Shown: positions 1-57,155, counted from the first letter of the stretch. The stretch is DNA of 61,341 nucleotides from an uncultured Gammaproteobacteria bacterium (GCA_964610395.1 CAZSXP010000001.1:1-61341), one strand, 5' to 3'. Program-made: numbers and translations. The notes: generated by a model not told the origin, from the sequence alone.

Positions 1-1532
1 TTAAGCTTTTTGAGAAAGGCTTGGCTTATAAAAAGAAATCTCCTGTAAATTGGTGCCCTAAAGATGAGACTGTTCTTGCAAACGAACAGGTGATTGACGG
101 AAAGTGCGATAGGTGTGATACGGCTGTTATTAAAAAAGATTTGGATCAATGGTTCTTTAAGATTACTGACTATGCTGATAGATTAATAGATGGTTTGGAT
201 GGGATTGATTGGCTTCCTGAAGTTAAAATTCAGCAAAAAAATTGGATAGGCAGAAAGAAAACTAAAAAAGGAGTAACTTATCATATTCATGATTGGTTAA
301 TATCAAGGCAGCGTTATTGGGGTTGCCCAATTCCAATGATTTATTGCAAACACTGCGCAATATTGCAAGGTGAGACCTTGCAATCTGGGTGGTCGCCGGT
401 GCCTGAAAAAGAGTTGCCTGTACTTCTTCCAACGGATGTTGATTTTCTGCCTCATGGAGAATCACCAATTGCACGATCTACTACTTTCCAGAAAGATGTA
501 GTTTGTTCTAGTTGTGGAAAACCTGCTAAAAGGGAAGTTGATACCATGGATACATATGTTGATTCATCTTGGTACTTTTTAAGATTTTGTGATCCAAAAA
601 ATACAAAAGCATTTGCAGATAAAGATAAAATTATTCCAGTTGATGACTATGTTGGTGGTGGTCATATAGTTCAACATTTATTATTTGCCAGATTTTTTTG
701 GAAAGTGTTGTTTGACGCAGGATATATAGATAAAAAAGTTGGGGATGAGCCGTTCTTGAAGCTTCGAGCCCCTGGGTGGATATTGGGACCTGATTCCAGA
801 AAGATGAGTAAGAGATGGGGTAATATTGTCACGCCTGACGATATTTTTCCTAAGTTTGGTGCAGATACATTGAGAGTATATGAAATGTTTATGGGACCGT
901 TTGATATAGTAAAACCTTGGAGTATTACAGGAGTGGAGGGGGCATATAGATTCTTGGGTCGCATTTGGAGACTTTTTTTGAATTCTGCACACGATTCGGC
1001 ACTTTCGAATTCTTTGGTTTTGTCTAAAATGCATCAGACAATTAAAAAAGTAGGGGAGGATATTGAAAATTATAAATTCAATACTGCAATTTCCAGTATT
1101 ATGGAATTTGTTAATACGATTTCTGACGCCCATGTCAGTTCCTCACTCCTTCGGGTTGCTTCGCAGACCAGTCGTTCGGCTGCTGACAATAGGCTCGAAA
1201 TCATGACTGTGTTGTGTAAATTGCTTGCACCGTTTGCTCCGCATATGATGGAAGAGGTTTGGCACGAAGTATTGGGTAACAAAGAATCAATCCATTTATC
1301 AAAATGGCCTGAATATGATCCCAAATATTTAATTCAAAATGAAGTTACAATAGCAATTCAGGTTAATGGTAAACTAAGAGGGCAATTAATAATTAAGAAT
1401 GAAGAGTTAATAAATAAAAACAAAATAATACAACTTGCAAAGGAAGATAAAAAGGTGGCAAAATGGTTAAAGAGTGGAACAGTTGAAAAAGAAATTTTTA
1501 TTCCTAACAAACTCATCAATTTTGTTATATAG
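1..1532 (+). CDS. leuS: Leucine--tRNA ligase, 5' end cut off by window edge; CP1 editing domain absent
   Basis: VNWCPKDETVLANEQV, DWLISRQRYWG, DTMDTYVDSSWY, KMSKR, LAPFAPH, QVNGKLRG motifs; frame stays open upstream to the window edge (KLFEKGLAY). Confidence 0.97.
   Translation, partial: KLFEKGLAYKKKSPVNWCPKDETVLANEQVIDGKCDRCDTAVIKKDLDQWFFKITDYADRLIDGLDGIDWLPEVKIQQKNWIGRKKTKKGVTYHIHDWLISRQRYWGCPIPMIYCKHCAILQGETLQSGWSPVPEKELPVLLPTDVDFLPHGESPIARSTTFQKDVVCSSCGKPAKREVDTMDTYVDSSWYFLRFCDPKNTKAFADKDKIIPVDDYVGGGHIVQHLLFARFFWKVLFDAGYIDKKVGDEPFLKLRAPGWILGPDSRKMSKRWGNIVTPDDIFPKFGADTLRVYEMFMGPFDIVKPWSITGVEGAYRFLGRIWRLFLNSAHDSALSNSLVLSKMHQTIKKVGEDIENYKFNTAISSIMEFVNTISDAHVSSSLLRVASQTSRSAADNRLEIMTVLCKLLAPFAPHMMEEVWHEVLGNKESIHLSKWPEYDPKYLIQNEVTIAIQVNGKLRGQLIIKNEELINKNKIIQLAKEDKKVAKWLKSGTVEKEIFIPNKLINFVI
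362..384. repeat. REP-like 23-bp palindrome (RAYT-associated family) inside leuS
   Basis: ATTGCAAGGT-GAG-ACCTTGCAAT, perfect 10-bp arms; translated LQGETLQ. Confidence 0.9.
1123..1188. repeat. GC-rich nested hairpin segment inside leuS
   Basis: TGTCAG(1133)...CTGACA(1188) outer arms enclosing CTCACTCCTTCG-[GGTTGCTTCGCAGACC]-AGTCGTTCG; encodes atypical HVSSSLLRVASQTSRSAADN. Confidence 0.55.
1384..1411. repeat. Degenerate 7-bp tandem repeat in leuS
   Basis: AATTAAT AATTAAG AATGAAG AGTTAAT. Confidence 0.55.
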
Positions 1533-2070
1533 CCTCATAGGGCTCATTCTAGTCGGTTTTGGAGTCTTAGCATACAAAATAGACCTGTTTTCCTCGGGAG
1601 ATAAAGTTGAAGTCCTGACATCGACTACAGAAGTCCAAGATGGTGATAAAGAGATAGTTGTGGAAATTGTTGGAGCTGTTGAAAAGGCAGGAGTTTATAA
1701 AATGCATTTGGGGGATAGAATTGATGACCTTTTGATAATTTCTGGTGGACTTTCAGAAAACGCTGACAGGGATTGGGTAATAAAAAATATTAATAGAGCA
1801 AGTAAGTTAACGGACGGACAAAAGTTATATATTTACCAGATAGGAGAGGTAAAAGGTGTCTCAACTGATACCGAAGCAAATCCATCAGGTTTTATAAATA
1901 TTAATACAGCAAGTCTTAAAGAACTTATAGATTTACCTGAAATAGGCCAAGAACGTGGGAAAAACATCATTGAACAAAGACCTTACTCAAACACTCAAGA
2001 ATTAGTTTCTAAGGGAGCAATTAGTCAAAAAGTTTTTGATAAAATCAAAAATGAAATTACAGTATATTAG
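1474..2070 (+). CDS. comEA: Competence DNA receptor ComEA (TM, SLBB and HhH domains)
   Basis: N-terminal TM; VEIVGAVEKAGVY SLBB; ININTASLKELIDLPEIG HhH; adjacent to comEC; exact start uncertain. Confidence 0.88.
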   Translation: MEQLKKKFLFLTNSSILLYSLIGLILVGFGVLAYKIDLFSSGDKVEVLTSTTEVQDGDKEIVVEIVGAVEKAGVYKMHLGDRIDDLLIISGGLSENADRDWVIKNINRASKLTDGQKLYIYQIGEVKGVSTDTEANPSGFININTASLKELIDLPEIGQERGKNIIEQRPYSNTQELVSKGAISQKVFDKIKNEITVY

Positions 2071-3115
2071 TTTGTTTGTAATTATTTTATTAATTTTTTT
2101 ACGGTTTTATTCAACTAGACCAGTGTATAAAAATGGGGATTTTGTAAAAATAACATCCAAAGTTTATAACGAACCAATAGTTTACGACAGGGAACAGTAT
2201 TTAAAACTTCAGGGACTAAAAATTTACTTACCAAAATATCCAGAAATTAGTTACGGTGATACTGTTGTCGTAATTGGTCAAGTTAGTCAGGACAAACTTG
2301 TTAGTCCAGAGTTAGTTGAGATACAAGATAGAGGACATATGATATATGATTTAAGACAAAAACTTATCTTGTTTTACAAGACTTCACTTCCTGAGCCTTT
2401 CAGCAGTTTGACTGCTGGAATTGTAATAGGCTCAAAAAATATGCCAGAAAGCTTTTGGGAAAAGCTAAAAGCTACAGGAACTGCCCATGTTGTAGTTGCT
2501 TCAGGCACAAATGTAACCATGACAGCAAGTTTTTTAATTGGTTTACTTACCGTTTTTCTTAAAAGAAAGGTCGCAATTTGGATTACATTGGTTGGTATTT
2601 TGGGTTATGTAGTGATTTCTGGCTTTGACGCGCCGATTATCAGGGCAGGAATTATGGGCAGTATATTATTATTTAGTCAAGAAATAGGCAGAGTCGCAAA
2701 TACATGGAGGATTTTAATTTATTCAGGGGCAATTATGCTTCTAATTAAACCAATTTGGATTACTGATCTGGGTTTTATTCTCTCATTTGTAGCAACTATT
2801 TCCCTCATGCTATTGCAGAAAAAAATAGATAATAGGCTTAAAATTATTCCCGCAATCTTTCGTGAAGGATTATCCACCTCGCTTGCAGCTCAGGTTGGAG
2901 TCGCGCCTATTATTTTTGTTACTTTTGGGCAGTTTAATATACTTTCCCCGATAATTAATGCCTTAATACTTTGGACCATTCCCTATATCATGGTAATAGG
3001 GGCGTTAGGAGGAATAGTAGGTCTAATTGTACCAGTATTAGGTAGATTGATACTGTTTATTTTATTTCCATTTTTACTATGGTTTACAAAAATTTTAGAA
3101 ATATTCTCGTATTAG
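2051..3115 (+). CDS. comEC: ComEC/Rec2 competence membrane domain protein
   Basis: GTAHVVVASGTNV, PIIRAGIM, DLGFILSF motifs; multiple TMs. Confidence 0.9.
   Translation: MKLQYISLFVIILLIFLRFYSTRPVYKNGDFVKITSKVYNEPIVYDREQYLKLQGLKIYLPKYPEISYGDTVVVIGQVSQDKLVSPELVEIQDRGHMIYDLRQKLILFYKTSLPEPFSSLTAGIVIGSKNMPESFWEKLKATGTAHVVVASGTNVTMTASFLIGLLTVFLKRKVAIWITLVGILGYVVISGFDAPIIRAGIMGSILLFSQEIGRVANTWRILIYSGAIMLLIKPIWITDLGFILSFVATISLMLLQKKIDNRLKIIPAIFREGLSTSLAAQVGVAPIIFVTFGQFNILSPIINALILWTIPYIMVIGALGGIVGLIVPVLGRLILFILFPFLLWFTKILEIFSY
2320..2354. repeat. Degenerate 7-bp tandem repeat in comEC
   Basis: GATACAA GATAGAG GACATAT GATATAT GATTTAA. Confidence 0.6.
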
Positions 3116-3897
3116 TACTAATTACAGTTTGGCTGGCTGTATTTAATATTGATAATAAATTGCACATAATTGCTTGTGATGTTGGTCAGGGGGATGCAAT
3201 ATTAATACAAAAAAATACTACACAGATTTTAATAGATGGAGGGCCAGATAAAAGTGTCTTGGATTGCCTTGGAAGACACGTGCCGTTTTTTGATAAAACT
3301 ATCGAACTTGTTATTTTGACCCATCCTCAAGAGGATCACTATGGAGGCTTAATTGATGTCTTTAAAAACTATGAAATAGGTTTGTTTGGCGAGTATAACC
3401 GAGAGTCTAGCAATCTATCATATCAAGTGCTAAGAAACATACCCACCAACCCCATTACTTTAACAAAAGGTACTAAACTTAGGCTTGGTATGATATATTT
3501 AGATATACTTCACCCATTGGCTGATACTAATAACAAGAATGCTAATGATGATGGTATAGTAACTCTTCTAAAATATAAAGAATTCAAGGCTATTTTTACT
3601 GCAGATGTGGAAAATAAGGTCAGTGATGAGCTTTCAGAATTGACAGAAATACAAAACCTTAACTATCTCAAAGTGAATCATCATGGTTCAAAAAATGGAT
3701 TGAGTCAAAAGTTACTTGATGCAACTGATCCAGACGTGGCTGTTATTAGTGTTGGCAAGAAAAATAGCTATGGACACCCACATATTGAAATACTACAAAT
3801 GCTAAATACTATCAAATTCGTCAAAATTTTAAGGACAGATCAAATAGGTGATGTAGATGTTGTAACAGATGGCATTAAATTTTGGTACAATGAATAA
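3079..3897 (+). CDS. MBL-fold metallo-hydrolase (separately encoded ComEC C-terminal domain)
   Basis: DVGQGDA, THPQEDHYGG, KVNHHGS, NSYGHPH motifs. Confidence 0.92.
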   Translation: MVYKNFRNILVLVLITVWLAVFNIDNKLHIIACDVGQGDAILIQKNTTQILIDGGPDKSVLDCLGRHVPFFDKTIELVILTHPQEDHYGGLIDVFKNYEIGLFGEYNRESSNLSYQVLRNIPTNPITLTKGTKLRLGMIYLDILHPLADTNNKNANDDGIVTLLKYKEFKAIFTADVENKVSDELSELTEIQNLNYLKVNHHGSKNGLSQKLLDATDPDVAVISVGKKNSYGHPHIEILQMLNTIKFVKILRTDQIGDVDVVTDGIKFWYNE

Positions 3898-5535
3898 ATG
3901 ATAAATTACAAAGTAGAAATCAGAAAAATATTAGCAAGAGTTACTGGTGTTAAAAATCCAGAAGTGGAATTTTCTGCAAGTGAACAGTTTGGAGATTATA
4001 GTTCAAATGTAGTGTTAAAAAATAAAGATCTTGATATAGATAAAATTATCAAAAAACTAAACGAAGAAAATTCTGACTTTATTGCAGAAAAAAAAGGAAA
4101 ATTCATCAATTTTTGGCTAAAAAAAGATATATTAGTTAATAATTTGATATCTAAAGACATAGATATTAAAAAAAATAATGGAGTTGTAATAATTGATTAT
4201 TCATCACCAAATATCGCCAAACCTTTTGGCATAGGTCACCTTCGTTCAACTGTCATAGGTCAAGCAATTTATAATTTATATAAATATTTGGGATTTGAAG
4301 TGATTGGAGATAATCATTTAGGAGATTGGGGAACACAGTTTGGCAAACTTCTATATATGATAGACAAAACTAAGACAAAGGATTATTCAATTGAAAACTT
4401 GGAAAAATTATATGTTAATTTCCACACAGAAGCTGAAAAAGATGAAATACTGGAAGAAGAAGCAAGAATTTGGTTTAAGAAGTTAGAGGATGGGGACACA
4501 GAAGCTAGAACTATTTGGAAGCAGTGTGTAAATGTATCCTTAAACGAATTTAGTAAAATATATGCCCTTTTGGGCGTAAAAATAGATAATAGTTTTGGGG
4601 AAAGTTTCTATCTCGAGGAAATGAAAGAGATGCTTCTTGACCCCAAAATAATCAAATATCTTGAAACAGGCGAAAACAATTCTAAAATAATTAATATTCC
4701 CGATATTAAAACACCTCTAATGTTTCTAAAGTCAGATGGCGCAACTACTTATGCTACTCGTGATATGGCAACACTTGCTTTTAGACAAAAAAAATATAAG
4801 CCCGATTTAATTATTTACGAGGTTGGAGCAGAACAACAACTTTATTTTAAACAATTATTTGCAGCTGCTAGACTTTTAAAAATTATTGATCCAAAAACAG
4901 AGCTTGTTCATACTGCACATGGGCTTTACCTTGCGCCTGATGGTAAGAAATTTTCAACCAGAAAGGGAAAAACAATTAAACTTATTGAAGTTTTAGAGGA
5001 AGCAATTGAAAGAGCGATGGAACTTGGTAAAAAATCAAGTGGATCAGCCTACGCCAAGGCTACGGCCGACGCTGTAGGCATTGGGGCAATAAAATACTTT
5101 GATTTGATGCATTCTGTGCAAAGTAACGTTGTTTTTGATTGGGAAAAGATAATGAATATGGAGGGAAATAGTGGGCCATATTTACAATATACTATCGCTC
5201 GAACTAATTCAGTAGTTTCTAAAGGTCTGACCCTCAAAGCTGAGCGCGTCCGTAAGGGTCAGACCTTACCAGAGCTAACAGAACAGGAACTTTCAGTTCT
5301 TCGTAAATTATCCCAATTTCAGGAGGTAATTATGACTGCAGCAAAAAGTTACTCACCCAATATTTTATGCAATTATTTGTATGAACTGGCAAGTAAATTT
5401 AATACCTTTTACAATGCTCATAAAATAATTAGTGGAGAGAATCAAGAATTTAGATTACAACTTACAAAATCAACAGGAGAGGTGTTAAAAACTGGACTTA
5501 ATTTACTTGGAATTGACGCTCCTGAAAAGATGTAA
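3898..5535 (+). CDS. argS: Arginine--tRNA ligase
   Basis: DYSSPNIAKPFGIGHLRS, GDWGTQFG, KFSTRKG, GNSGPYLQY, C-terminal APEKM. Confidence 0.97.
   Translation: MINYKVEIRKILARVTGVKNPEVEFSASEQFGDYSSNVVLKNKDLDIDKIIKKLNEENSDFIAEKKGKFINFWLKKDILVNNLISKDIDIKKNNGVVIIDYSSPNIAKPFGIGHLRSTVIGQAIYNLYKYLGFEVIGDNHLGDWGTQFGKLLYMIDKTKTKDYSIENLEKLYVNFHTEAEKDEILEEEARIWFKKLEDGDTEARTIWKQCVNVSLNEFSKIYALLGVKIDNSFGESFYLEEMKEMLLDPKIIKYLETGENNSKIINIPDIKTPLMFLKSDGATTYATRDMATLAFRQKKYKPDLIIYEVGAEQQLYFKQLFAAARLLKIIDPKTELVHTAHGLYLAPDGKKFSTRKGKTIKLIEVLEEAIERAMELGKKSSGSAYAKATADAVGIGAIKYFDLMHSVQSNVVFDWEKIMNMEGNSGPYLQYTIARTNSVVSKGLTLKAERVRKGQTLPELTEQELSVLRKLSQFQEVIMTAAKSYSPNILCNYLYELASKFNTFYNAHKIISGENQEFRLQLTKSTGEVLKTGLNLLGIDAPEKM
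5047..5066. repeat. GC-rich hairpin element (family 2) inside argS
   Basis: GCCTACGCCAAGGCTACGGC, translated SAYAKATA; shares core CGCCAAGGCTWCG with the copy in def. Confidence 0.65.
5222..5267. repeat. Inverted REP doublet (REPIN-like) inside argS
   Basis: AAGGTCTGACCCT (5222-5234) and its exact reverse complement AGGGTCAGACCTT (5255-5267), 20-nt spacer; translated KGLTLKAERVRKGQTLP. Confidence 0.85.
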
Positions 5536-6021: not shown

Positions 6022-6043
6022 ATTTATATGGTAGAATAATTAG

Positions 6044-7321
6044 ATGCAATATGCAAAGAGTGTTTTATCAAATGGCCTCAGAGTAATTACAATCCCAATG
6101 CCTAGTTTAGAATCTGTTACAGTATCAATATGGGCAAAGACGGGATCAAGAAATGAAAATTCCAAAAATAATGGGATTAGCCACTTTTTAGAACATATGT
6201 TTTTTAAGGGAACAACAAATAGGCCTACTGCCAAGCAAATTGCAGAGGAAATAGACTCAATAGGTGGGATCCAAAACGCAGGGACTTCAAAAGAATATAC
6301 AGAATACTATATAAAATGCAGGGCAGATAAAATTGAAACAGCTTTTGATTTATTATCTGATATGGCTATGAACTCACTACTTGACGAATCAGAAATTGAG
6401 AGGGAAAAGGGGACTATTATTGAAGAAATTAGAATGTATGAAGATACTCCAATGATCTCGATTGGTGAAGTTTTTGAGAGCCTTATTTATTCAGGACATA
6501 CATTGGGAATGGACATTGCAGGCACAGAAAAGACGGTGGGAGGGATGAAGAGAGGGGATTTTATTGATTATCAAAAGAATTTTTACAACCCAGAAAATAT
6601 GATTTTAACAGTTGCAGGAGGAGTAACCCAAGAAGATAGTTTTTCGCTTGCGAAAAAATACTTCTCGGGAATGTCAAATCTACAAATCCGCAAATCTACA
6701 AATGACCAATACAAAGCAACACAAACAGCGCCAAAAATTAAGTTACATAATAAAAAGAAAGAGCAGACGCATGTAATACTAGGTTTTTTGGCAGATGGGA
6801 AAAATTACAAAGGTAAATATGCCCAAACCATCCTTTCTGCAATTTTAGGTGGGGGAATGAGTTCACGTATGTTTACTGAAGTCAGGGAAAGAAGAGGACT
6901 TGCATATGCAATTCGTACCTCAATGGATAGATATACAGATATTGGATACATGGGAACATATGCAGGACTTGATACTAAAAGAGCCGAAGAGGCTGTAAAA
7001 GTAATGCTAGAAGAGCATTACAAAATTCTTAATTCTAAATTCTTAATTTCCAACGCGGAACTCTTGAAAGCTAAAGAGTTCTTAAAGGGTCATTTGGCGC
7101 TGGCCTTGGAGGACACAAGTGATGTTTCAAGCTTCTTTGGAGATCAAGAATTATTTTCCCAAAAAGTACTAACCCCTGAAGAAGTGTTTAAAAAGATTGA
7201 TAAAGTGACCATGGATGAAGTTAATTTTGAAGCCAAAAGACTTTTTGTGCCAGAAAGATTAAATTTAGCAATAATAGGGCCGTATGAAAGTGATAGTAAG
7301 TTTGTTAAAATAATAAAATGA
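6044..7321 (+). CDS. M16 family zinc peptidase (pitrilysin/insulinase)
   Basis: HFLEH inverted zinc motif; GGMSSRMFTEVRERRGLAY. Confidence 0.95.
   Translation: MQYAKSVLSNGLRVITIPMPSLESVTVSIWAKTGSRNENSKNNGISHFLEHMFFKGTTNRPTAKQIAEEIDSIGGIQNAGTSKEYTEYYIKCRADKIETAFDLLSDMAMNSLLDESEIEREKGTIIEEIRMYEDTPMISIGEVFESLIYSGHTLGMDIAGTEKTVGGMKRGDFIDYQKNFYNPENMILTVAGGVTQEDSFSLAKKYFSGMSNLQIRKSTNDQYKATQTAPKIKLHNKKKEQTHVILGFLADGKNYKGKYAQTILSAILGGGMSSRMFTEVRERRGLAYAIRTSMDRYTDIGYMGTYAGLDTKRAEEAVKVMLEEHYKILNSKFLISNAELLKAKEFLKGHLALALEDTSDVSSFFGDQELFSQKVLTPEEVFKKIDKVTMDEVNFEAKRLFVPERLNLAIIGPYESDSKFVKIIK
6675..6706. repeat. Degenerate 8-bp tandem repeat in M16 peptidase linker
   Basis: CAAATCTA CAAATCCG CAAATCTA CAAATGAC. 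Confidence 0.65.
7024..7051. repeat. Degenerate 7-bp tandem repeat in M16 peptidase
   Basis: AATTCTT AATTCTA AATTCTT AATTTCC. Confidence 0.65.
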
Positions 7322-7785: not shown

Positions 7786-7793
7786 ATTTTTTG

Positions 7794-7865: not shown

Positions 7866-7917
7866 AGCAAAGCGAGGAATGCCAAGCTTAGCCGTAGGCG
7901 GGCTTACAGTCCGCTTG

Positions 7918-10643: not shown

Positions 10644-10678
10644 ATATAGTATATAGCATATGGTATATAGTATATAGG
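10644..10678. repeat. Intergenic 7-bp tandem repeat (5 units)
   Basis: ATATAGT ATATAGC ATATGGT ATATAGT ATATAGG. Confidence 0.8.
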
Positions 10679-12083: not shown

Positions 12084-12759
12084 AATTTGCTTTTAATAAA
12101 AATATAGTATCTTTAATTAAATTCTTTTTAATCCAATCTTTGGTTTTATTATCAACTAAATCCCCAATACCTGAGAGGATATCAGATGGTGGATTTTTCT
12201 CTAGTAGTGCAAGACATCTTTTGAGATATGGAACAGTTTTTTTGTTGGTCCTGAATTCTAGAAGTTCATTATTTAAATTCCATTCTTCCTTCAACATAAA
12301 CCAGATATCGTAAATATCACGATTAGCCAAACTTTTTCTATCCAAGAGCGCTGTTAATTTATTAGCAAACATATCCTCACTTTTCATAATCAGTGAAGGA
12401 ATTCCCAAAAAACTTTTGACTTCATATTTATTTTTAGAAACTCTTTTTGAAATTTCTACTTTAAGTTGACTTAACCCTTTTTTGTAACTTAACAGCCAAA
12501 ATAAATTGTAATGTTTATCTTTGCTTTGTCTTAAGTCACCATACTTTTCGACAATTTTTGTAACCTTACTCAGTACAATATCTTTTTTTGATTCATCAAG
12601 TAGGTCAAAATCCAAATCGACACTAAAACGAGGGAGATTATAAAAAAAATACAATGCTGTTCCACCTTTGAAGCCAAGTACTGAGGCTATTTCAATATCA
12701 GAATAAATATCCTTTAAAATGTTAGTCATTATTGTGCGGTGTGAAGAAATCACTAACAT
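12073..12759 (-). CDS. AbiEii-family nucleotidyltransferase toxin (type IV TA)
   Basis: FKGGTAL, RFSVDLDF, ANKLTALLDR, RDIYDI motifs. Confidence 0.9.
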   Translation of the reverse strand: MLVISSHRTIMTNILKDIYSDIEIASVLGFKGGTALYFFYNLPRFSVDLDFDLLDESKKDIVLSKVTKIVEKYGDLRQSKDKHYNLFWLLSYKKGLSQLKVEISKRVSKNKYEVKSFLGIPSLIMKSEDMFANKLTALLDRKSLANRDIYDIWFMLKEEWNLNNELLEFRTNKKTVPYLKRCLALLEKNPPSDILSGIGDLVDNKTKDWIKKNLIKDTIFLLKANYEL

Positions 12760-13312
12760 AATTATTAAACCTCCTTTCCATTGCTTTATTATTATATATT
12801 TTTACTAAGTTTTTAGCGACCTTCCAGTTAACTTGTTCCAGATTATCAAAGTGATAGTTTTTAGACATATATACTCTGTCCAGAAACGCACGCTCTTTTG
12901 AAGCCATAGAATATCCATTAATGTTTTCTATTCCTCTTGGGTTATTTAGTATTTCATCCTTCATTTTTCTAAAACTAATAGTGTAATCACAAAGTTTGAC
13001 ATCTCTTGTTTGATAACTAATTACAAATATTGTTTTATCGTAATTTTGAAATGTTATGCCTTTTCTTTGGAGTACAGTTTCAAGGCTAATGTAAGACGGT
13101 GTAAAAATTTTATTTGCTGCTTCTAAAATTTCGTAACCATTATTTTTTGCATACAAACCTCTTTTTAGACTTTTCAAAACTCCTTTTTTAACGAAGTAAT
13201 TAATTCTTGATTTTAATTTATTTAAATTAGTTTCATTAAGTATCAATGATATCTCTTGAGTTGTAAAAACAGTATTTTTTGACGAATATAAGCTGTAGGT
13301 AAGACTTTTCAT
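12722..13312 (-). CDS. AbiEi-family antitoxin / transcriptional regulator
   Basis: N-terminal wHTH (LKRGLY), SYISLETVL, ASKERAFLD; directly upstream of AbiEii. Confidence 0.85.
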   Translation of the reverse strand: MKSLTYSLYSSKNTVFTTQEISLILNETNLNKLKSRINYFVKKGVLKSLKRGLYAKNNGYEILEAANKIFTPSYISLETVLQRKGITFQNYDKTIFVISYQTRDVKLCDYTISFRKMKDEILNNPRGIENINGYSMASKERAFLDRVYMSKNYHFDNLEQVNWKVAKNLVKIYNNKAMERRFNNYVSDFFTPHNND

Positions 13313-13399
13313 TACTTCCAGTTTACAAAATGATTTATTATTTGTCAATAGATGTAAGATTTGGTACAAATATATACCAATGGTACAATCAGTCTTAAT

Positions 13400-14149
13400 A
13401 TGAAGGATTTAGTTTTAGTTAAACTAGGTGGAAGTGTCATAACTGACAAGAGTAAACCGTTTACGGCTAGAATTGAAATTATACAAAAACTAGCAAAAAA
13501 GATTAAAAAGTTTAAAAACAAAAATACTGATTTAATAATTGGGCATGGTTCAGGATCATTTGCTCATGTTCCTGCAGCAAAATATCAAACTCAAAAAGGA
13601 ATGATTAACAAGAATAGTCTTTGGGGTTTATCGCTAACAGCAGACGCTGCAATTCAAATAAATAGAATAGTGGTTTCGGAATTTTTGAAGCTAAAAATTC
13701 CTGTTATATCCTTTGCTCCTTTAAGTTTTATTTACGAAACTAAGATTATTACAGAGCATATAAAAAATGCATTAGATATTGGTATAACACCAGTAATTTA
13801 CGGTGACGTGGTGATGAATAAAAAGCAAGGATTTAAAATATATTCAGGAGAGAAAACCTTGGATATATTAGCAGTTAAATTAAGTAAATTGTATAAAAAA
13901 ATAAAAATAATTTATTACACAGATACAAATGGAGTTTATGACGATAAAAACAAAACAATTCCAATTGTTACCCCAAGGAATATTAAAGACATTAAAAAAT
14001 ACTTAACGGGAAGTAACAAAACAGATGTTACGGGGGGAATGATGCATAAAGTGGAAGAAAGCCTAAAGTTGGTCAAAAATCTTGATGCTGAAGTTTACAT
14101 TATGAATGGTTTAAGTAGGGGAAAAGTAACTAAAGTTTGTAAAGGTTAG
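13400..14149 (+). CDS. Isopentenyl phosphate kinase (amino-acid kinase superfamily, archaeal type)
   Basis: KLGGSVITDK, HGSGSFAH, PVIYGD, DVTGGM motifs; beside prenyltransferases. Confidence 0.85.
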   Translation: MKDLVLVKLGGSVITDKSKPFTARIEIIQKLAKKIKKFKNKNTDLIIGHGSGSFAHVPAAKYQTQKGMINKNSLWGLSLTADAAIQINRIVVSEFLKLKIPVISFAPLSFIYETKIITEHIKNALDIGITPVIYGDVVMNKKQGFKIYSGEKTLDILAVKLSKLYKKIKIIYYTDTNGVYDDKNKTIPIVTPRNIKDIKKYLTGSNKTDVTGGMMHKVEESLKLVKNLDAEVYIMNGLSRGKVTKVCKG

Positions 14150-22020: not shown

Positions 22021-22059
22021 ATTGCAAGGTCAGTTAATTGCAGGGTCAGACCCTGCAAT
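22021..22059. repeat. REP palindrome plus half-site at RAYT 3' end
   Basis: ATTGCAAGGTCAG half-site (22021) then ATTGCAGGGT-CAG-ACCCTGCAAT (22037-22059). Confidence 0.9.
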
Positions 22060-22719
22060 AGTGTCGTCAGATAGGTCTAATTCTTCGTTAATATATTTAA
22101 ACTTTTCAACAAATTCTTTATATGATTTTACGTTATTATGTTTCATGAATGTGCTTTCGTTAAAGTAATCTAATATAACATTTTTATTTACCCAAGAGGT
22201 ATTATTTAAACCTAAATATGTAGAGTACGAAGAATAACCCTCAACTAAGTTTTTGGTGTATTTCAATGGATTTTTATGAATATAGCGCGACACATCTAAT
22301 AGGTAATCTTTATTTATTACATTCGTAGCTTTGTATCTACCTTGGAATAGGGGGCCAGACCGCTTGTATTTTTTATTAAAATACATTGAATACCTTGTAA
22401 ATAAAGATTTCGTAAATTCTTTAATAGAGTTCTTATCTTTTTGCTTGATTAATAAATGAACATGGTTTGGCATCAAACAAAAGGCAATTAAATCAATTTC
22501 ACCAAAATAATTTTTCCTAGGATGAAATTGCAGGGTCAGACCCTGCAATTTAGCTTCAGATTTAAAAAACTCGTTATTCGATAAGTATTCTTTTAAGTAG
22601 GAGAGGAAGACTTTATAGTCTTGTTCAACCAAAAAGATTTTCCTTTTTTCAACCCCGCGATTATAAACATGATAAATAGAGTTATCCATGTAATATTTGA
22701 CAGAACCCTTAGCTGGCAT
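22030..22719 (-). mobile_element. REP-associated tyrosine transposase (RAYT; IS200-like Y1 HUH family)
   Basis: YHVYNRG, FCLMPNHVHLL (HUH), GPLFQGRYKA, RYIHKNP, YSSY motifs; flanked by palindromes in inverted orientation. Confidence 0.92.
22527..22549. repeat. REP palindrome inside the RAYT gene
   Basis: ATTGCAGGGT-CAG-ACCCTGCAAT; translated LQGLTLQ. Confidence 0.9.
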
Positions 22720-22732: not shown

Positions 22733-22755
22733 ATTGCAGGGTCTGACCCTGCAAT
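22733..22755. repeat. REP palindrome upstream of RAYT
   Basis: ATTGCAGGGT-CTG-ACCCTGCAAT; loop orientation inverted relative to the 22037 copy. Confidence 0.9.
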
Positions 22756-24597: not shown

Positions 24598-25368
24598 TTA
24601 TTTTATCATGACTTTAACACTAGGTGACATGGTAGATTTTATAAAAGCTCTTGTTATTGTTTTTGAACCACCTAGTGACAAAATAATAGCTTCTGCATTT
24701 TTGACTAATTCTTCATTTTTTTGAGAAACTTTACCAAAAGAAGTATGAATTAATGGTGTTTCTCTTTCAGTTTTAATTGTGACCATATTGCCTTTGAATT
24801 TGTCCGCATCTTTTAAAGATTTTATAACAGTTCCGTTTTTTGGATTTGGCATTAATCCTTTTGGACCCAAAAGTCTTGCAAAGACTACTAATTTTGGCAT
24901 CATTTCAGCTGTTGCTAAAAGTAAATCAAAATCTATTTTTCCTGCCTTTAGTTTCTCAACAGTTTTGTCATCTGCTATTTCTACTTTCTTTTGTTTTCCT
25001 GCTGAAAAGGGAAGTGTCACTTGAGCTGTTATTCCTACTTTTTTCATAACTAAATGCATTTCAAAAGTACCATCAAATTTTATAGAAGAAATATCCTTTA
25101 CAAGTTTAATTGCATCTTCTAAAGAATATAAAGTAGCTTTTGTTATTTTTGCTTTTGATTCAATATATTTCTTTCCTCGAACTCTTTCTTTACTTTTTGA
25201 CTTTTCTTCAGTTAATTCTGGGCTAGATATTTCTTCTTTCTTAATTATTATTTCTTCATTTTTGTTTAGTAATGCTATTTTTTTAGCTTTTTTCTCAGCA
25301 TACAACTCGGCAGAAGTTTTAGTTACTACTGGTTCGTTTGTTAATATTGCTGTTTTTGTTTTACCCAT
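24598..25368 (-). CDS. rplA: 50S ribosomal protein L1 (charged N-terminal extension)
   Basis: LGPKGLMPNPKNGT, STMSPSV. Confidence 0.95.
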   Translation of the reverse strand: MGKTKTAILTNEPVVTKTSAELYAEKKAKKIALLNKNEEIIIKKEEISSPELTEEKSKSKERVRGKKYIESKAKITKATLYSLEDAIKLVKDISSIKFDGTFEMHLVMKKVGITAQVTLPFSAGKQKKVEIADDKTVEKLKAGKIDFDLLLATAEMMPKLVVFARLLGPKGLMPNPKNGTVIKSLKDADKFKGNMVTIKTERETPLIHTSFGKVSQKNEELVKNAEAIILSLGGSKTITRAFIKSTMSPSVKVMIK

Positions 25369-32004: not shown

Positions 32005-32773
32005 CAAATTGCTTGTAAGAAATAGGTTTTTTCCCCTCAAGTTGTACAGTAACAGGTTCATTCTTAAATTCTAATATTTTAAGTCTCTTGCCATTAACTA
32101 GGGTCCAAATTCCTGGCCATGGTATGTATGCTCTATGTTTTCTCTCTATAATTATTGAATCATCTTTAATAAGGTCAACAAATCCATCTTGTTTGATAAT
32201 TATTTTAGTATAAGTTGCTTTACTTTCATCTTGTGGTTTTAACTTAATTTTACCTTCTATATAAGCAGGGATCATCTCAATTAAAACTTCTGCAGATTTT
32301 TCAAATAATCTTTTTCTTAAAGTTTCATTGGTGTCATTTTCTAAAATATCTTCCTTAAATTGAGTCAAAATTGGTCCATGATCCATCTTTTCATCCATTT
32401 TAATAATCGATATTGCAGGGTCTGACCCTGCAATTATAGTTGCTTGAATTGGGGAAGCGCCTCTAAATTCAGGTAGTAGCGACGGGTGAATATTAAGAAT
32501 GCCAAATTTAAAATTATTAATTACTACTTTAGGAATTATCATTCCAAAAGAAGCACAAACACCCATATCTGCCTCGGGTAAATCTACATAATCAAAGTTT
32601 CTTGGAATGTGCTTTTTGAATGCCCATGAGTCAACTGCAGAATAAGTTATTATTTTATCTCTACCTACAGGTTTAGGAGATTGGGTAACAACAGCTACAA
32701 TTTCGTGATATTTATGCAATTTATCCAAAATTGGAATTACATAGTCAGGTGTACCAAAAAAGATTATTTTCAT
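31979..32773 (-). CDS. fmt: Methionyl-tRNA formyltransferase
   Basis: IIFFGTPDY, LNIHPSLLPEFRGASPIQ, RAYIPWPG. Confidence 0.96.
   Translation of the reverse strand: MKIIFFGTPDYVIPILDKLHKYHEIVAVVTQSPKPVGRDKIITYSAVDSWAFKKHIPRNFDYVDLPEADMGVCASFGMIIPKVVINNFKFGILNIHPSLLPEFRGASPIQATIIAGSDPAISIIKMDEKMDHGPILTQFKEDILENDTNETLRKRLFEKSAEVLIEMIPAYIEGKIKLKPQDESKATYTKIIIKQDGFVDLIKDDSIIIERKHRAYIPWPGIWTLVNGKRLKILEFKNEPVTVQLEGKKPISYKQFVTSQFLTS
32412..32434. repeat. REP-like 23-bp palindrome inside fmt
   Basis: ATTGCAGGGT-CTG-ACCCTGCAAT, identical to 22733-22755; translated IAGSDPAI. Confidence 0.9.
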
Positions 32774-34554: not shown

Positions 34555-36288
34555 TCATTTTTGAGGCTGGTTTAGTTGATTCAATATATTAATTGCATCT
34601 TGGTAATTTGACTTTAGTTCAATAGATTTTTGTAAATTTTTAATTCCTTCACTATTCTTACCCATTTTAAATTGCAAAATTCCTAATTGATAATAAAGTT
34701 TTGGGTCATTGGGGGATAACTTAATGCCATTTTTAATAACATTTTCGGCGAGTTTCAGATTATTAGGATCTGTATCTGCATTTTTAACTAAATTATTAAT
34801 TAATATCTTTCTAATATTTTGATTGAAAGGCGATAAGTTTAGGGCCTTAGTTGCCATTTCGACATTTGTATCAATTAGTGCTTTCTTAGAAATATAAATA
34901 GCTTCATTTGGAGAAATATTTAAAGCTTGATCAAATTTTGAATAATTGTAATAAACATCAGCTTTCCAGTATTTTGCTATGCAAAATAGTACATAGTACA
35001 TAGTACAAAGTACAAAGAAAATTGCAACTTTTTCATAAAACTTAAGTCTCGTTTTGTCTATATGAATTTTATAATCAATACTTTCTACTAAAGCAAATGC
35101 AGGAAATAAAAAGAACAGAAGAGAGACGGGTACAACAGAAAAACCAAAAAAATTAGTAACTAAAATAGCAATATATCCTGCTAAATAATCAAATCTTTTT
35201 GATTCAATAAAAATTATTATTGAATAAGTTATTAAAAATAAATATGATGCAAATCCTAATATTCCTGTGTTTGCTAGATAATTTAAAAATTCATTGTGTG
35301 CTTTGTTGTAAATAAAATCCCATTCTGAAGTTAAATTATGTTCTACTGGTTTAAACATCGGATATGAGAAAGCAAAAGTTTCAGGTCCAGTTCCCAAGAT
35401 TGGATAATGTTTAAATACCTCTAATGCTCCAAGCCAAACATATTTTCTAATTGTTCCTGATTCAGTTCCACCAGTTTCAAGGGCGGGGCCAGATACAGTG
35501 ACGGGTGAACGGTCAACTTTGAACGGTGATTGAATGACTAAAAATAAACATCCAAAAACAGAAAACAAGATTAAAAATTCTTTTACACGCTTTTTAAACA
35601 TGAATGCCCAGAAAATTATTGCTTCAATCCCAAAAGCCAATAACCCCGATCTTGACTTAGTAAATAATAAAGTTACGAAAAAAAGAACAGACAGAAAATA
35701 ATATTTGTAGGATTTTGCCCATGTCAATGGAATTAAGGCAACTAATAGTGCTGCAAGCCAGTTAGGTTGTCCTAGTGTAGAAAAAACTCTTGTTTGAACA
35801 TCTTGTACCCAGCAAGATTCTTTGAAACCAAAATTCATCATTCCACAAGTTGCAAATATTCCAAATTTCTCACCGATTGCAAGGATGCTTGCAATTGCAG
35901 TAGAAAGTAATATGTAGTATGTAGTATGCAAGGCTTGCTTTTTGTTGAGGTTACTTACAAAGGTCCAGTAAAGAAGTGCATAACAGACTTGAGTTATTAA
36001 TCCACCATTAAATCTTGAATAATAGCCAAACCATGAAGTTCTAGGGTCTATTGAGAAAAGAGCACTGATTAGATAAATAGATAAATAGATGACTAAGGGG
36101 ACATCTAGTTTGGTGGGGCGAAAGATGAACTTTCTTTGTTTGATTGACTCAATTAGCCATCCTGATACAATCAAACTTGTAAAGAGATAAAGAATTATAA
36201 CTTTATTGAATTCAAAGAGCTCTGATGTGGTTTTAAAAAAGGTAAGTGGTAAGATTAAAAATAATATGTTAAAAAGTACTGGAATCAT
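34555..36288 (-). CDS. O-antigen ligase family membrane protein with TPR tail
   Basis: RVFSTLGQPNWLA, TKSRSG, GTGPETF, KAHNEFL; C-terminal TPRs. Confidence 0.9.
   Translation of the reverse strand: MIPVLFNILFLILPLTFFKTTSELFEFNKVIILYLFTSLIVSGWLIESIKQRKFIFRPTKLDVPLVIYLSIYLISALFSIDPRTSWFGYYSRFNGGLITQVCYALLYWTFVSNLNKKQALHTTYYILLSTAIASILAIGEKFGIFATCGMMNFGFKESCWVQDVQTRVFSTLGQPNWLAALLVALIPLTWAKSYKYYFLSVLFFVTLLFTKSRSGLLAFGIEAIIFWAFMFKKRVKEFLILFSVFGCLFLVIQSPFKVDRSPVTVSGPALETGGTESGTIRKYVWLGALEVFKHYPILGTGPETFAFSYPMFKPVEHNLTSEWDFIYNKAHNEFLNYLANTGILGFASYLFLITYSIIIFIESKRFDYLAGYIAILVTNFFGFSVVPVSLLFFLFPAFALVESIDYKIHIDKTRLKFYEKVAIFFVLCTMYYVLFCIAKYWKADVYYNYSKFDQALNISPNEAIYISKKALIDTNVEMATKALNLSPFNQNIRKILINNLVKNADTDPNNLKLAENVIKNGIKLSPNDPKLYYQLGILQFKMGKNSEGIKNLQKSIELKSNYQDAINILNQLNQPQK
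34987..35014. repeat. 7-bp tandem repeat in O-antigen ligase gene
   Basis: TAGTACA x3, AAGTACA. Confidence 0.75.
35495..35529. repeat. Degenerate 7-bp tandem repeat in O-antigen ligase gene
   Basis: ACAGTGA CGGGTGA ACGGTCA ACTTTGA ACGGTGA. Confidence 0.65.
35901..35928. repeat. Degenerate 7-bp tandem repeat in O-antigen ligase gene
   Basis: TAGAAAG TAATATG TAGTATG TAGTATG. Confidence 0.6.
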
Positions 36289-50877: not shown

Positions 50878-50891
50878 TACAATAACTTCAT

Positions 50892-54216: not shown

Positions 54217-54219
54217 GTA

Positions 54220-54504: not shown

Positions 54505-54516
54505 TAGATTAAAAAA

Positions 54517-54804: not shown

Positions 54805-54811
54805 TACTTTC

Positions 54812-55408
54812 ATGCGAATTGCCAAAGCAATTTCTTCTTTAACAGAATCTTTTGAAAAACTTCCTGGAATTGGTCCAAAATCTGCACAGCGATTGACTTA
54901 TTATCTTCTTCATGTTCCACAGCGAGAACTTGATGAGTTTGCTGAAAATCTAACACGCCTTAAAAAAGATACTGTTCTTTGTTCTGTTTGCAAAAATGTG
55001 GCTGAGACAGATCCTTGTTCAATTTGCTCTGATCCTAACCGTGATAAGAAAACTTGTTTAATTGTTGAAAATCCACTTGATCTAATTGCATTTGAAAGAA
55101 GTGGAAAATATAAAGGGCTTTATCATGTATTACATGGTGCAATTAACCCCTTGGAAAATATTGGACCTGATGAAATCTTTATAACAGATCTTTTAAAAAG
55201 ACTTGATGAGATTTCCGAAATTATTATTGCCACAAATCCAACAATGGAAGGGGAGGCAACAGCTATGTACCTGGTAAAACAATTAAGAAATAAGAAAGAA
55301 GAATTAAAAATAACAAGACTAGGAATGGGGATACCAACTGGGGCTGATTTGGAGTATGCAGATGATGTAACATTAACTCAAGCCTTAGAAGGACGAAGAG
55401 AATTATAA
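54812..55408 (+). CDS. recR: Recombination mediator RecR
   Basis: LPGIGPKSAQR, C4 zinc finger, YHVLHG, EGEATA, ALEGRR. Confidence 0.98.
   Translation: MRIAKAISSLTESFEKLPGIGPKSAQRLTYYLLHVPQRELDEFAENLTRLKKDTVLCSVCKNVAETDPCSICSDPNRDKKTCLIVENPLDLIAFERSGKYKGLYHVLHGAINPLENIGPDEIFITDLLKRLDEISEIIIATNPTMEGEATAMYLVKQLRNKKEELKITRLGMGIPTGADLEYADDVTLTQALEGRREL
55281..55308. repeat. Degenerate 7-bp tandem repeat in recR
   Basis: AATTAAG AAATAAG AAAGAAG AATTAAA. Confidence 0.5.
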
Positions 55409-55413
55409 TGTAA

Positions 55414-55896
55414 TTGAATCTCATGAATCATATCAAAAAAACAATTAAAGCAATTGGAGAAGAACCATTAGAGATATTGAAATCCGCTGTAAAACAAATT
55501 AGCATATCAGAAAACATTCCAAACGCAGAACAACCTAAAGATGAAGAACAACCTAAGTTAGATCAAACTGCAATGGCCCAGCAAGATGGCAGACATTTAC
55601 AGGCGCTAGAATCAGAATTAAAAGATATTAGAAGGCAAAAAATATTTGAAAGTTTAATGCAAAGGATCCAAAATGGGGAAGACATCCCATTAGAGGAATT
55701 TACAGAACTTTCATATGAACAAAGAGACGTTTTAAAAGCTCAAATTGAGGCTGTTCGTAACAGTAAATTATCATCCTCTATTGACCAACTTGAAACTCCT
55801 GGTGCAAAACGTGGCCGTAAAATGGGTGGGGGACAAAAAGGTGCTGCTAAAAGGGAAGAAACTCGTGTCGAAAAACCTGTACCACCAAGTGGTTGA
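55414..55896 (+). CDS. Hypothetical protein
   Basis: 160-aa hydrophilic ORF filling the recR-cysS gap. Confidence 0.7.
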   Translation: MNLMNHIKKTIKAIGEEPLEILKSAVKQISISENIPNAEQPKDEEQPKLDQTAMAQQDGRHLQALESELKDIRRQKIFESLMQRIQNGEDIPLEEFTELSYEQRDVLKAQIEAVRNSKLSSSIDQLETPGAKRGRKMGGGQKGAAKREETRVEKPVPPSG

Positions 55897-55913
55897 TATG
55901 TTAAAATTAAAAT

Positions 55914-57155
55914 ATGGATTTATATTTATACAACTCACTCACACGACAAAAAGAGTTGTTTACACTAATTGACCCCAAAGAGATTAAATTTTATACCTGT
56001 GGAATGACAGTATATGACTATGCCCATATAGGCCATGGCAGAAAATATGTCATGGATGATATTTTGAAACGGGTACTTACATACAATGGTTTTAAAGTTA
56101 ATCATGTTCAAAATGTAACTGATGTTGGTCATTTAGTATCTGATGCTGATGATGGGGAAGATAAACTTGAAAAGGGAGCTAAAAAACAGGGTAAAACAGT
56201 TTGGGAAGTAGCTGAATTTTTTACTAATAATTTTTACGATTCAATGGACAAATTAAATATAATAAGACCCAATATAATTTGTAAAGCAACAGAACATATC
56301 AAAGAGCAAATTGAATTAATTGATAAACTATTCAAAAAAGGTTATGCCTATGATACAGAAGAAGCCGTTTACTTCGACGTGTCGAAGTTTACCAATTATG
56401 GAAAAATGTTTGGTCAAAAGTTAGAAGATAAGAAAGTTGCTGTAAGGAAAGAAGTTAAAACAGATGAAAATAAAAGAAATAATGCAGACTTTTCACTATG
56501 GTTTAAAAGAGTTCATGATTTTAAAGATCATGTAATGCATTGGGAAAGTCCTTGGGGTGATGGATTTCCTGGTTGGCATATAGAATGTTCTGCTATGAGT
56601 ATGAAGTATTTAGGAGAGCAAATTGATATTCATACTGGTGGAGAAGACCATTTATCAATTCATCATCCTAATGAAATTGCGCAAAGTGAAGGTGCAACAG
56701 GAAAAAGTCCCTTTAGTAGGTTTTGGATGCATTGCTCATTTTTAATGGTAGATGGAACTAAAATGAGTAAGTCTCTTGGTAATTTTTACACAATTGGCGA
56801 TATTTTAGACAAAGGAATAGACCCAATTGCACTACGATATTTATATTTAGGGGCTCATTACAAAAAACCAATGAATTTTACTTGGGCTTCGCTTGAGTCA
56901 GCAGTTAAGGGGCTGAAACGATTACGATCAACAGTGAACAGTGTACGGTCAACAGATAGGACAGTTTTGTCTCAAGAAAAGAATGAAAAAGTAGAAGAGT
57001 ATAGAAATAAATTTAACTTAGCAATTAATGACGATCTAAATACTAGTAAAGCAATGGCTGTTTTATTTGAGGTATTAAAATCTAATATTCCGTCTAGTGA
57101 TAAATATGATTTGGCAATATTATTTGATGAAGTGTTAGGTCTTGGACTTAAATAA
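55914..57155 (+). CDS. cysS: Cysteine--tRNA ligase (short C-terminus)
   Basis: [36 protein letters not shown]. Confidence 0.97.
56924..56958. repeat. Degenerate 7-bp tandem repeat in cysS
   Basis: ACGATCA ACAGTGA ACAGTGT ACGGTCA ACAGATA. Confidence 0.7.

Follow-up and report, generated by a model that had tools for sequence, protein, structure and literature searches.

Short seven-base tandem arrays embedded in frame in the genes of an uncultured bacterium with a 695-kb genome

The window analyzed here is a stretch of 61,341 bases, the first part of contig C1 of a genome (G000) of 695,362 bases in 22 contigs, with 32% G+C, a completeness given as 99% and a coding fraction of 0.93 by the open reading frame (ORF) calls of this analysis. 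Tandem arrays of a seven-base unit, typically of four to five copies, are embedded in frame in unrelated proteins encoded in the window and elsewhere in the genome. Comparison with orthologues showed that most of these arrays changed the length of the gene little or not at all and that the repeated heptamer resembles sequence already present at the site. The arrays probably arose by in-place templated copying at an offset of 7 nucleotides (nt) during DNA synthesis or repair, filtered by selection.

The nearest named records to the RecR protein of the window are metagenome-assembled genomes titled Candidatus Woesebacteria, Microgenomates or Patescibacteria group, and the public runs holding DNA of this genome are groundwater metagenomes, in which shares of 0.3-0.9 of the sampled sequence words were found. 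Two genomes of the same genus were used as orthologue references, namely G003, a complete genome of 842 kb that is poor in arrays, and G007, which is rich in them.

Period-7 arrays in the window

Arrays were called with Tandem Repeats Finder (TRF), and the main count comprises period-7 arrays of at least 3.5 copies. On the window, TRF returned 64 rows, 11 of which have period 7. A preliminary description of the window had listed short arrays and quoted four of the encoded peptides. TRF arrays are present at 1384, 6675, 7024, 10644, 34986, 35907, 55284 and 56930, and all four peptides are encoded, including VLCTMYYVL and HTTYYILLS. At 2320 and 35495, degenerate period-7 runs of five units can be recognized by eye as described, but they fall under the TRF threshold. 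The array in the gene for ribosomal protein L1 was missing from that description. The arrays and runs are as follows, called by TRF unless stated otherwise.

1384..1410, plus strand: period-7 array of the AATTAAG type, 3.9 copies, in leuS (amino acids 461-470, end of the anticodon-binding domain; TRF score 33); peptide QLIIKNEELI, 2 amino acids longer than in G003
2320..2356, plus strand: degenerate period-7 run of the GATAnnn type, about 5 units, seen by eye, inside a ComEC-family ORF (2036-3115; Pfam Competence domain)
6675..6703, plus strand: period-8 array, 3.6 copies, in an M16 peptidase ORF
7024..7048, plus strand: period-7 array AATTCTT, the reverse complement of the AAGAATT type, 3.6 copies, in the M16 peptidase (amino acids 327-335); peptide KILNSKFLIS, length unchanged relative to G003
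10644..10677, no strand assigned: intergenic period-7 array ATATAGT, 4.9 copies, about 105 nt upstream of an ORF starting at 10782
25228..25261, minus strand: period-7 array, 4.7 copies, in ribosomal protein L1 (amino acids 36-47); peptide NKNEEIIIKKEEI, a true insertion of 10 amino acids relative to G003
34986..35014, minus strand: period-7 array ATAGTAC, 4.1 copies with 95% matches, in an O-antigen-ligase-like membrane protein (amino acids 425-435); peptide VLCTMYYVL, length unchanged relative to G003
35495..35537, minus strand: degenerate period-7 run of the ACGGTGA type, about 5-6 units, seen by eye, in the same membrane protein
35907..35928, minus strand: period-7 array GTAGTAT, 3.1 copies, in the same membrane protein; peptide HTTYYILLS
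55284..55313, plus strand: period-7 array of the TAAGAAA/AAGAATT type, 4.4 copies, in RecR (amino acids 174-184), in the loop preceding the conserved ITRLG strand; length unchanged relative to G003
56930..56955, plus strand: period-7 array AACAGTG, 3.7 copies, in CysS (amino acids 339-348; TRF score 31), in the linker between the catalytic and DALR domains; peptide STVNSVRST, length unchanged relative to G003

Excess of seven-base arrays over chance

Both shuffling controls and independent contigs confirmed that the seven-base arrays are real. The window contains 7 period-7 arrays, compared with an average of 1.20 (at most 2) in 40 codon shuffles, in which codons were permuted within blocks of 10 while intergenic arrays and arrays at ORF edges stayed untouched, so that the intergenic array at 10644 contributes one to the mean. 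In the whole genome, 53 period-7 arrays were counted, compared with 16, 9 and 9 arrays of periods 6, 8 and 9, respectively. Markov simulations of order 1, 3 and 5 gave 1.0, 2.6 and 0.8 period-7 arrays, and codon shuffles of the genome gave 8.5-9.2, up to 7 of which are the untouched intergenic or ORF-edge arrays. The excess over codon-shuffled sequence on which the preliminary description depended is therefore found both in the window and genome-wide. Furthermore, a lag-identity scan that does not use TRF, with a threshold of at least 18 matches in 21, identified 23 segments at lag 7 and 9 at lag 14, whereas each of the other lags from 4 to 13 gave 4 segments or fewer. The excess at lag 14 is a harmonic of lag 7.

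In contigs from further public runs, of which two belong to other studies, both arrays in the thioredoxin reductase (TrxB) gene are covered with 0 differences, which indicates that the arrays are not a product of the G000 assembly. These contigs are listed below.

X3 record 6, positions 12866-14009
X5 record 15, positions 12377-13213, other study
X8 record 30, positions 12541-12888, other study

No readable case of polymorphism between array and no array was found in four public runs, which were available as contigs only, and the contigs of the four runs, which drop rare variants, showed no 7-nt indel among the matches listed (12 indels of 62).

Length neutrality and local origin of the repeated unit

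Alignment with orthologues, which had been proposed to see whether the arrays are indels, showed that they mostly are not. Compared with G003, the net change was exactly 0 amino acids in 25 of 48 arrays and within one amino acid in 35, and it reached at least +5 amino acids in only three (5, 9 and 10). Compared with G007, 14 of 23 arrays had a net change of 0, and one was at +7 amino acids. These results agree with the earlier contention that local slippage is not the source of the arrays. Identity to G003 was 0.48 inside the arrays and 0.62 in the 30-nt flanks, and this lower identity at conserved length indicates that a tract of about 31 nt was overwritten in place.

The tracts of G003 were also compared, in register, with idealized G000 arrays. 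The identity was 0.459, compared with 0.314 ± 0.018 in a control that used the G003 tracts of other arrays (500 permutations). A seed of at least 6 of the 7 bases of the unit was retained in register in G003 for 12 of 34 arrays, versus 1.7 ± 1.2 in the control. The seed lies at either end of the array or in its middle, and no copying direction is therefore visible. Both the local match and the seeds indicate that the repeat was made from a heptamer already at the site and not from one imported into it.

The units recur. Among 175 arrays, 94 distinct canonical units were found, versus 150.8 ± 4.2 expected, with roughly 40 units in G000 alone; the commonest are AAGAATT (16 times) and AAATAAG (7 times, in G000 only). 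Units common to different genomes number 22, versus 16.3 ± 3.1 expected. One 22-mer of the AAGAATT type is found without mismatch at two loci in G000 and also in G001, of the same genus, and in G039, a class-level relative. In a control for this search, the pattern read backward also matched, 4 times versus 7 in G000. Shared units at distant loci had been taken as signs of a dedicated repeat-depositing process; the recurrence beyond chance was borne out, but the unit is local and not deposited. Recurrence may be explained by similar local sequence in linkers rich in Lys, Glu, Asn and Ile, and some ectopic copying may contribute to it.

Location, hosts and size of the arrays

The anatomy of the arrays was described for the 57 arrays of G000 with at least 3.4 copies. 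Fifty of them lie inside ORFs, five are intergenic and two are at ORF edges, and the reading frame is open through all 50 coding arrays, in line with the earlier statement that the arrays are in frame in unrelated proteins. As judged from Pfam domain borders and from indel-tolerant alignment columns, the arrays are placed in linkers, loops and membrane helices, many of them between domains or at domain ends. The hosts are common housekeeping proteins and, as identified by Pfam, include LeuS, CysS, PheT, GatB, RecR, UvrC, PolX, TrxB, phosphoenolpyruvate (PEP) synthase and ribosomal protein L1. Other hosts are a UvrD-family helicase-nuclease and a 5'-3' exonuclease, and membrane hosts include a prepilin peptidase, a PMT-family glycosyltransferase and the O-antigen-ligase-like protein. 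In PEP synthase, the array is located at about amino acid 448, between the mobile and C-terminal domains, and in UvrC at amino acids 166-174, between the GIY-YIG and RNase H domains.

In soluble proteins, the AAGAATT type is read in the purine-rich orientation and yields charged KNEELRIK-type peptides; in membrane proteins, the reverse orientation yields hydrophobic LILNSSFLI-type peptides. Such a split is as expected from selection acting on a DNA-level event that occurs in either orientation.

The size of the arrays is narrowly distributed, with a median of 31 nt and an interquartile range of 28-33 nt (164 arrays from eight stretches of seven array-rich genomes). The longest perfect lag-7 run covers 29 positions, corresponding to an array of 36 nt. 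About 7 copies were counted in a few arrays and 10.7 in one. Intergenic arrays, though free of frame constraint, have 3.7-4.9 copies. Examination of 20 near-perfect arrays showed sharp borders, and neither target-site duplications nor inverted repeats were found in their flanks. Five genes carry two or more arrays, versus 2.29 expected (P = 0.06). By contig, C6 has 10 arrays versus 3.8 expected, and C5 and C7 have none versus 3.8 and 3.4 expected.

Stop codon avoidance

When 39 indel-free coding arrays were replaced in silico by perfect copies of their consensus units, an in-frame stop codon appeared in 24 of them. Mismatches to the consensus were found at 27 of 72 positions in the would-be stop codons, versus 67 of 1115 positions elsewhere. 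Thus, the arrays are about 94% perfect wherever perfection is survivable, and their degeneracy is mostly stop avoidance, which indicates that the arrays are translated. Their near-perfection argues that the arrays are young or are kept homogeneous.

Persistence and concerted change at orthologous sites

In G007, the tracts orthologous to G000 arrays have an identity of 0.576 at lag 7, compared with 0.308 at other lags, and 10 of 22 tracts reach at least 0.6. The corresponding values for G003 are 0.386 and 0.326, with 4 of 47 tracts reaching at least 0.6. At several sites, the arrays of G000 and G007 share place and register while their units differ. The units are AATTAAA and GATCTAA in a GT2 glycosyltransferase, where the third unit keeps a stop-avoiding TAT in both genomes, and CTTACTA and CATTCTA in a PMT-family protein. 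In one and the same linker of PEP synthase, G000 has an array of the AGTACAA type, whereas G007 has a peptide of the AAGAATT type. Stop codons inside the matches to relatives' PpsA proved to be merely the genes' own ends. In TrxB, one array is common to G000, G002 and G007 and free of indels. The other array is a G000-specific replacement of +27 nt, and the same loop in G026, which belongs to another family, has an ATTTCTA array of its own.

The loop of RecR was compared in 78 other Microgenomates. Identity at lag 7 was 0.422, compared with 0.311 at other lags, and was higher than at other lags in 63 of the 78; seven genomes have clear arrays with different units. Conservation of the encoded peptides in distant orthologues, which would have spoken against the preliminary description, was thus partly observed for RecR, where the DNA of the loop is itself 7-periodic in these relatives. 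The periodicity points to an old array in this loop and not to coincidence.

Distribution among relatives and search for a responsible gene

The density of period-7 arrays of at least 3.5 copies is patchy among relatives, ranging from 6 to 35 per 100 kb in seven genomes and being about 1 in five, one of which belongs to the same genus; congeneric genomes differ about seven- to tenfold. The figures below are to be read as contrasts and not as statistics, because most samples are small and the genomes are related.

Period-7 arrays per 100 kb (genome, relation to G000, density, sample)
G000, own genome: 7.6, whole genome
G007, same genus: 8.4 and 13.8, two contigs
G004, same genus: 11.7, 60 kb
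G008, same family: 10, 40 kb
G026, same order: 13, 200 kb
G033, same order: 35, 40 kb
G039, same class: 6, 200 kb
G003, same genus: 1.07, whole 842 kb
G015, same family: 1.0, 200 kb
G017, same family: 0.5, 200 kb
G014, same family: 1.7, 60 kb
G028, same order: 1.7, 60 kb
G001, same genus: 3.3, neither clearly rich nor poor, 60 kb
G029, same order: 3.3, neither clearly rich nor poor, 60 kb

Pooled densities of arrays of at least 24 nt differ between array-rich and array-poor genomes according to period.

Arrays per Mb, array-rich and array-poor genomes
Period 7: 100.2 rich, 8.7 poor
Period 8: 23.2 rich, 8.7 poor (2.7 times commoner in rich)
Period 9: 47.7 rich, 18.5 poor
Period 6: 12.2 rich, 12.0 poor

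The 9 period-7 arrays in the 842 kb of G003 are about equal in number to its arrays of periods 5, 6 and 8. G+C content does not account for the split (33.8% in G003 and 32% in G000).

In agreement with the preliminary description, no responsible enzyme was found in the window, nor was one found genome-wide among the seven gene families tested. Among 41 relatives, the thumb domain of PolX is present in 38, DinB in 34, and the UPF0102/YraN nuclease in 35; the latter is missing in array-poor G003 and G014 and present in array-poor G015, G017 and G028. MutS and the polymerase domain of Pol I are each present in 2 of the 41 relatives. The Y1 transposase was found in 32 of 41, including all 7 array-rich and also 3 of 5 array-poor genomes. 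Reverse transcriptase (RVT_1) was found in 10 of 41, and not in G000, which is 99% complete, nor in array-rich G004, G007, G008, G026 and G033. A genome-encoded retroelement writer, similar to a diversity-generating retroelement, is therefore excluded for G000 as far as RVT_1 detects such elements.

In a tblastn comparison, 175 of 752 G000 proteins had no match in the complete genome of G003. The few of these that also matched two array-rich samples were an alpha/beta hydrolase, YraN, a 656-amino-acid protein, a discoidin-domain protein and a GT-C protein. In the reverse comparison, no G003 gene absent from G000 was present in at least two array-poor samples and missing from all array-rich samples. 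Both presence/absence screens involve partial genomes, and neither yielded a candidate gene.

G000 encodes a stand-alone 5'-3' exonuclease of 306 amino acids, and its clade mostly lacks Pol I and MutS but has PolX (38 of 41). Lagging-strand maturation in the clade may rely on PolX and a flap nuclease.

Proposed mechanism

The process behind the arrays has an offset of 7 nt, with a small shoulder at 8 or more and none at 6, a reach of about 31 nt and a local template, and it keeps length. In the mechanism towards which we lean, a local heptamer would be copied over its neighbours at a 7-nt offset across a tract of about 31 nt, or four to five units, giving a near-perfect tandem array while gene length and frame are kept. 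Selection would then purge the outcomes that create stop codons or damage the protein, leaving survivors in linkers, surface loops and membrane helices, where the three frames of the unit would serve as filler peptide. The same process may keep re-homogenizing existing arrays, so that the site would persist while its unit drifts.

Such copying would most likely take place during DNA synthesis, in replication or in gap filling, and could occur via transient misalignment. The ruler of about 7 nt might be set by the polymerase or repair complex, corresponding to the length of duplex gripped by the enzyme, and lineages would differ heritably in rate. Because the clade mostly lacks Pol I and MutS and has PolX and a separate 5'-3' exonuclease, gap filling by a family-X polymerase without mismatch correction is a plausible background for such copying, although this alone cannot explain the difference between sister genomes.

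Several points weigh against this mechanism. We know of no mechanism that overwrites a non-homologous neighbour with a heptamer at constant length, and transient misalignment requires some prior similarity. Some arrays are true insertions (L1, +10 amino acids; TrxB, +9 amino acids relative to G003). Positions deviating from the unit were not enriched for the ancestral base (0.45 versus 0.48), which gives no support to a gradual conversion blocked by selection at constrained sites. The peak at four to five units, with few arrays of two or three, looks more like one event than like gradual growth, but in 24 of 39 cases a perfect array made in one event would have killed the cell. The events may be frequent, with only imperfect arrays surviving, or conversion may proceed in short steps, and the data favor neither. 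The recurrence of units within the genome beyond random heptamers also fits ectopic copying. In addition, none of the seven gene families examined in the 41 relatives separates array-rich from array-poor genomes, and the assignment of most genomes to either class is based on samples of only 40-400 kb.

Alternative explanations

Arrays could instead act as donors that overwrite partly similar tracts by short-patch gene conversion or short single-strand annealing, spreading ectopically as tiny selfish repeats. The low number of distinct units among the 175 arrays and the 22-mer shared by two loci of G000, G001 and G039 fit such spread, as does the rarity of MutS (2 of 41 relatives), which would leave heteroduplex patches uncorrected; a 23-nt palindrome in fmt, described below, is likewise placed in frame with length nearly kept (-1 amino acid relative to G003). 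However, the unit can be traced to local ancestral sequence, sharing of units between genomes is barely above expectation, variants that arrays have in common (TAA to GAA) are expected independently from stop avoidance, and the reversed pattern in the 22-mer control matched as well. We consider this explanation unlikely.

Ordinary slippage, in which a heptamer grows in in-frame steps of +21 nt or similar and nearby deletions later restore the length of the loop, appears more improbable still. The few net insertions (L1, TrxB and one of +5 amino acids) are what it predicts, and copy numbers near 4, with few near 7 and one at 10.7, are as steps of three units would give. On the other hand, slippage needs a prior repeat and passes through frameshifted states in essential genes, and the net change is exactly 0 in 25 of 48 arrays, with at least +5 amino acids in only three. 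Furthermore, intergenic arrays, free of frame, have the same 3.7-4.9 copies, and period 6, which would be best tolerated, shows no excess.

The arrays might also be functional sites kept by selection, namely tandem sites at which a protein binds DNA or mRNA, each of its subunits recognizing about 7 nt. For the known cases in Geobacter, Beggiatoa and Xanthomonas, regulatory roles have been proposed, involving a regulator, a cold-shock-type protein or G-quadruplexes (PMC2700814, PMC4679880, PMC4692102), the size of four to five units is alike in coding and intergenic DNA, and the arrays persist at orthologous sites across species. Nevertheless, the 94 units, roughly 40 of them in G000, are too many for a single reader, they derive from local sequence, they occur in either orientation inside housekeeping ORFs, they are AT-rich and unable to form G-quadruplexes, and close relatives lack the arrays, so that a functional origin is very doubtful.

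Finally, chance, base composition, codon periodicity or an assembly artefact can hardly be credited, since, although the genome is AT-rich (32% G+C) and the weakest arrays cited stand at the TRF floor (scores of 33 at 1384 and 31 at 56930), the Markov and codon-shuffle controls, the lag scan, the array-poor relatives of like G+C (G003, 33.8%), the exact agreement of contigs from other studies and the open frames through 50 arrays all argue against them.

Comparison with known heptamer arrays

To our knowledge, no mechanism is known for the excess of heptamer repeats in bacteria. Heptamers have been recognized since 2007 as the most over-represented class of longer bacterial simple repeats (cited in PMC4692102 and PMC4679880). 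Mrazek et al. 2007, as cited by MacGregor 2015 (PMC4679880), found heptanucleotide repeats to be the most abundant class in most genomes and considered 7 nt as a possible length of DNA interacting with the polymerase.

In Geobacter metallireducens, four GGGACCG-type units are found at each of 49 sites and five MTYCTGA units at each of 15, and there are also four-unit octanucleotide arrays; the GGGACCG-type sites lie within and between genes, and the arrays were read as regulatory (Aklujkar et al. 2009, PMC2700814). The arrays described here are similar in having 7-nt tandem units, four or five per site, at dozens of sites, and the octanucleotide arrays parallel the 8-mer array at 6675 of the window. 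They differ in that each family in Geobacter has one consensus unit, compared with roughly 40 unit types in G000, and in that 50 of the 57 G000 arrays are coding. It was for the G000 arrays that length neutrality, a locally derived unit and translation were established, with Geobacter compared by description.

In Xanthomonas and Nostoc, GGGNATC heptamer repeats occur genome-wide and are mostly intergenic, and the preferred number of units was ascribed to G-quadruplexes (Rehm et al. 2015, PMC4692102). These repeats resemble the G000 arrays in being genome-wide, in preferring about four units and in that the mechanism of their origin is likewise unexplained. The G000 arrays, in contrast, are AT-rich, mostly coding and not capable of forming quadruplexes, so that their common preference for about four units must be explained in some other way.

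TAACTGA direct repeats of 2-6 copies were reported at 169 sites with a scattered phylogeny in Beggiatoaceae, some Cyanobacteria and Bacteroidetes; most are located just upstream of start codons, a few copies in ORFs are translated in variable surface loops or protein ends, and horizontal transfer was suspected (MacGregor 2015, PMC4679880). Tandem heptamers, scattered phylogeny and translation of some copies in surface loops are features in common with the G000 arrays, but the unit is fixed there, whereas the units of G000 are many, locally derived and within genes.

Two other systems of repeats in genes share fewer features. Rickettsia palindromic elements (RPEs) were reportedly found by Ogata et al. 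in 2000 to be inserted in frame in protein genes. RPEs are palindromic insertions of 100-150 bp with a family consensus, and they add length. As in G000, a DNA-level repeat is translated as additional or altered peptide at permissive surface sites of unrelated housekeeping proteins; the G000 arrays, however, are about 31 nt long, non-palindromic, mostly length-neutral and made of local sequence. Contingency loci, which underlie phase variation, contain long and perfect repeats whose copy number varies and which silence genes through frameshifts. These repeats are likewise short tandem units in genes with a period that is not a multiple of three, whereas the G000 arrays consist of 4-5 units, keep the frame, avoid stop codons and lie in essential genes.

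Literature searches turned up no heptamer arrays in Patescibacteria, and a term search of a 2025 survey (PMC12699852) returned no mention of heptanucleotide or Patescibacteria. By unit length, unit number, dispersal and scattered phylogeny, the G000 arrays belong with the known but unexplained heptamer arrays. They differ from the known cases in the many units per genome, the AT-rich units that cannot form quadruplexes, the mainly genic location, and the demonstration of length neutrality and local templating.

Other repeats and a transposase in the window

A perfect 23-nt palindrome, G+C-rich in an AT-rich genome, is present in 10 copies in G000, as listed below.

Window copies: 22037-22059, 22527-22549, 22733-22755 and 32412-32434
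Other copies: C1 78630, C1 84575, C6 37219, C6 42324, C8 29776 and C9 25669

Eight of the 10 copies are in ORFs, where the palindrome is read in two frames as IAGSDPA or LQGxTLQ, and its hosts include fmt, UvrC and the Y1 transposase gene itself. The copy in fmt replaces the orthologous segment (-1 amino acid relative to G003). The palindrome looks like an element of the repetitive extragenic palindromic (REP) type embedded in frame in genes. The transposase is encoded at 22030-22719, on the minus strand, by an ORF of 229 amino acids (IS200-like; Pfam Y1_Tnp, E 1.3e-12) with palindrome copies at both ends and inside, which is the arrangement of REP-associated tyrosine transposases. It has no tblastn match in G003, and similar ORFs of about 225-230 amino acids number 1-8 per genome in 32 of 41 relatives. 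G004, of the same genus, has 33 Y1 transposase matches on many contigs. About 30 of them are identical-scoring IS200-type copies of 145 amino acids, suggestive of a recent burst in a single species.

In an ORF at 58114-58782 of the window, arrays of periods 12 and 24 (types GCCACTCCAACT and TCAACTGCAACT) overlap at 58504-58604; they are an in-frame low-complexity repeat of the ordinary multiple-of-three kind. On contig C9 of G000, seven copies of a G+C-rich motif of about 24 nt lie about 200-250 nt apart at 2971-4351, probably as a protein-level tandem repeat.

Significance

This lineage has three advantages over the known cases. The location of the arrays in conserved genes means that orthologues reveal the state before the event, and hence length neutrality and the local template, while selection against stop codons marks the arrays as translated. 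Because array density differs about seven- to tenfold between congeneric genomes, the factor responsible could feasibly be sought by comparing them.

It is possible, though we put it forward only tentatively, that a heritable activity with a ruler of about 7 nt, which rewrites tracts of about 31 nt and varies within a genus, is the common cause of the arrays in Geobacter, Xanthomonas, Nostoc, Beggiatoa and Patescibacteria. Candidates for such a ruler would include a variant replisome, a gap-filling complex or an unrecognized accessory factor, and the activity might be gained, lost or tuned between species of one genus. The arrays are a source of protein novelty in the loops and linkers of essential proteins in minimal genomes, and, if such an activity exists, tiny genomes without spare DNA would continually re-invent these loops and linkers.

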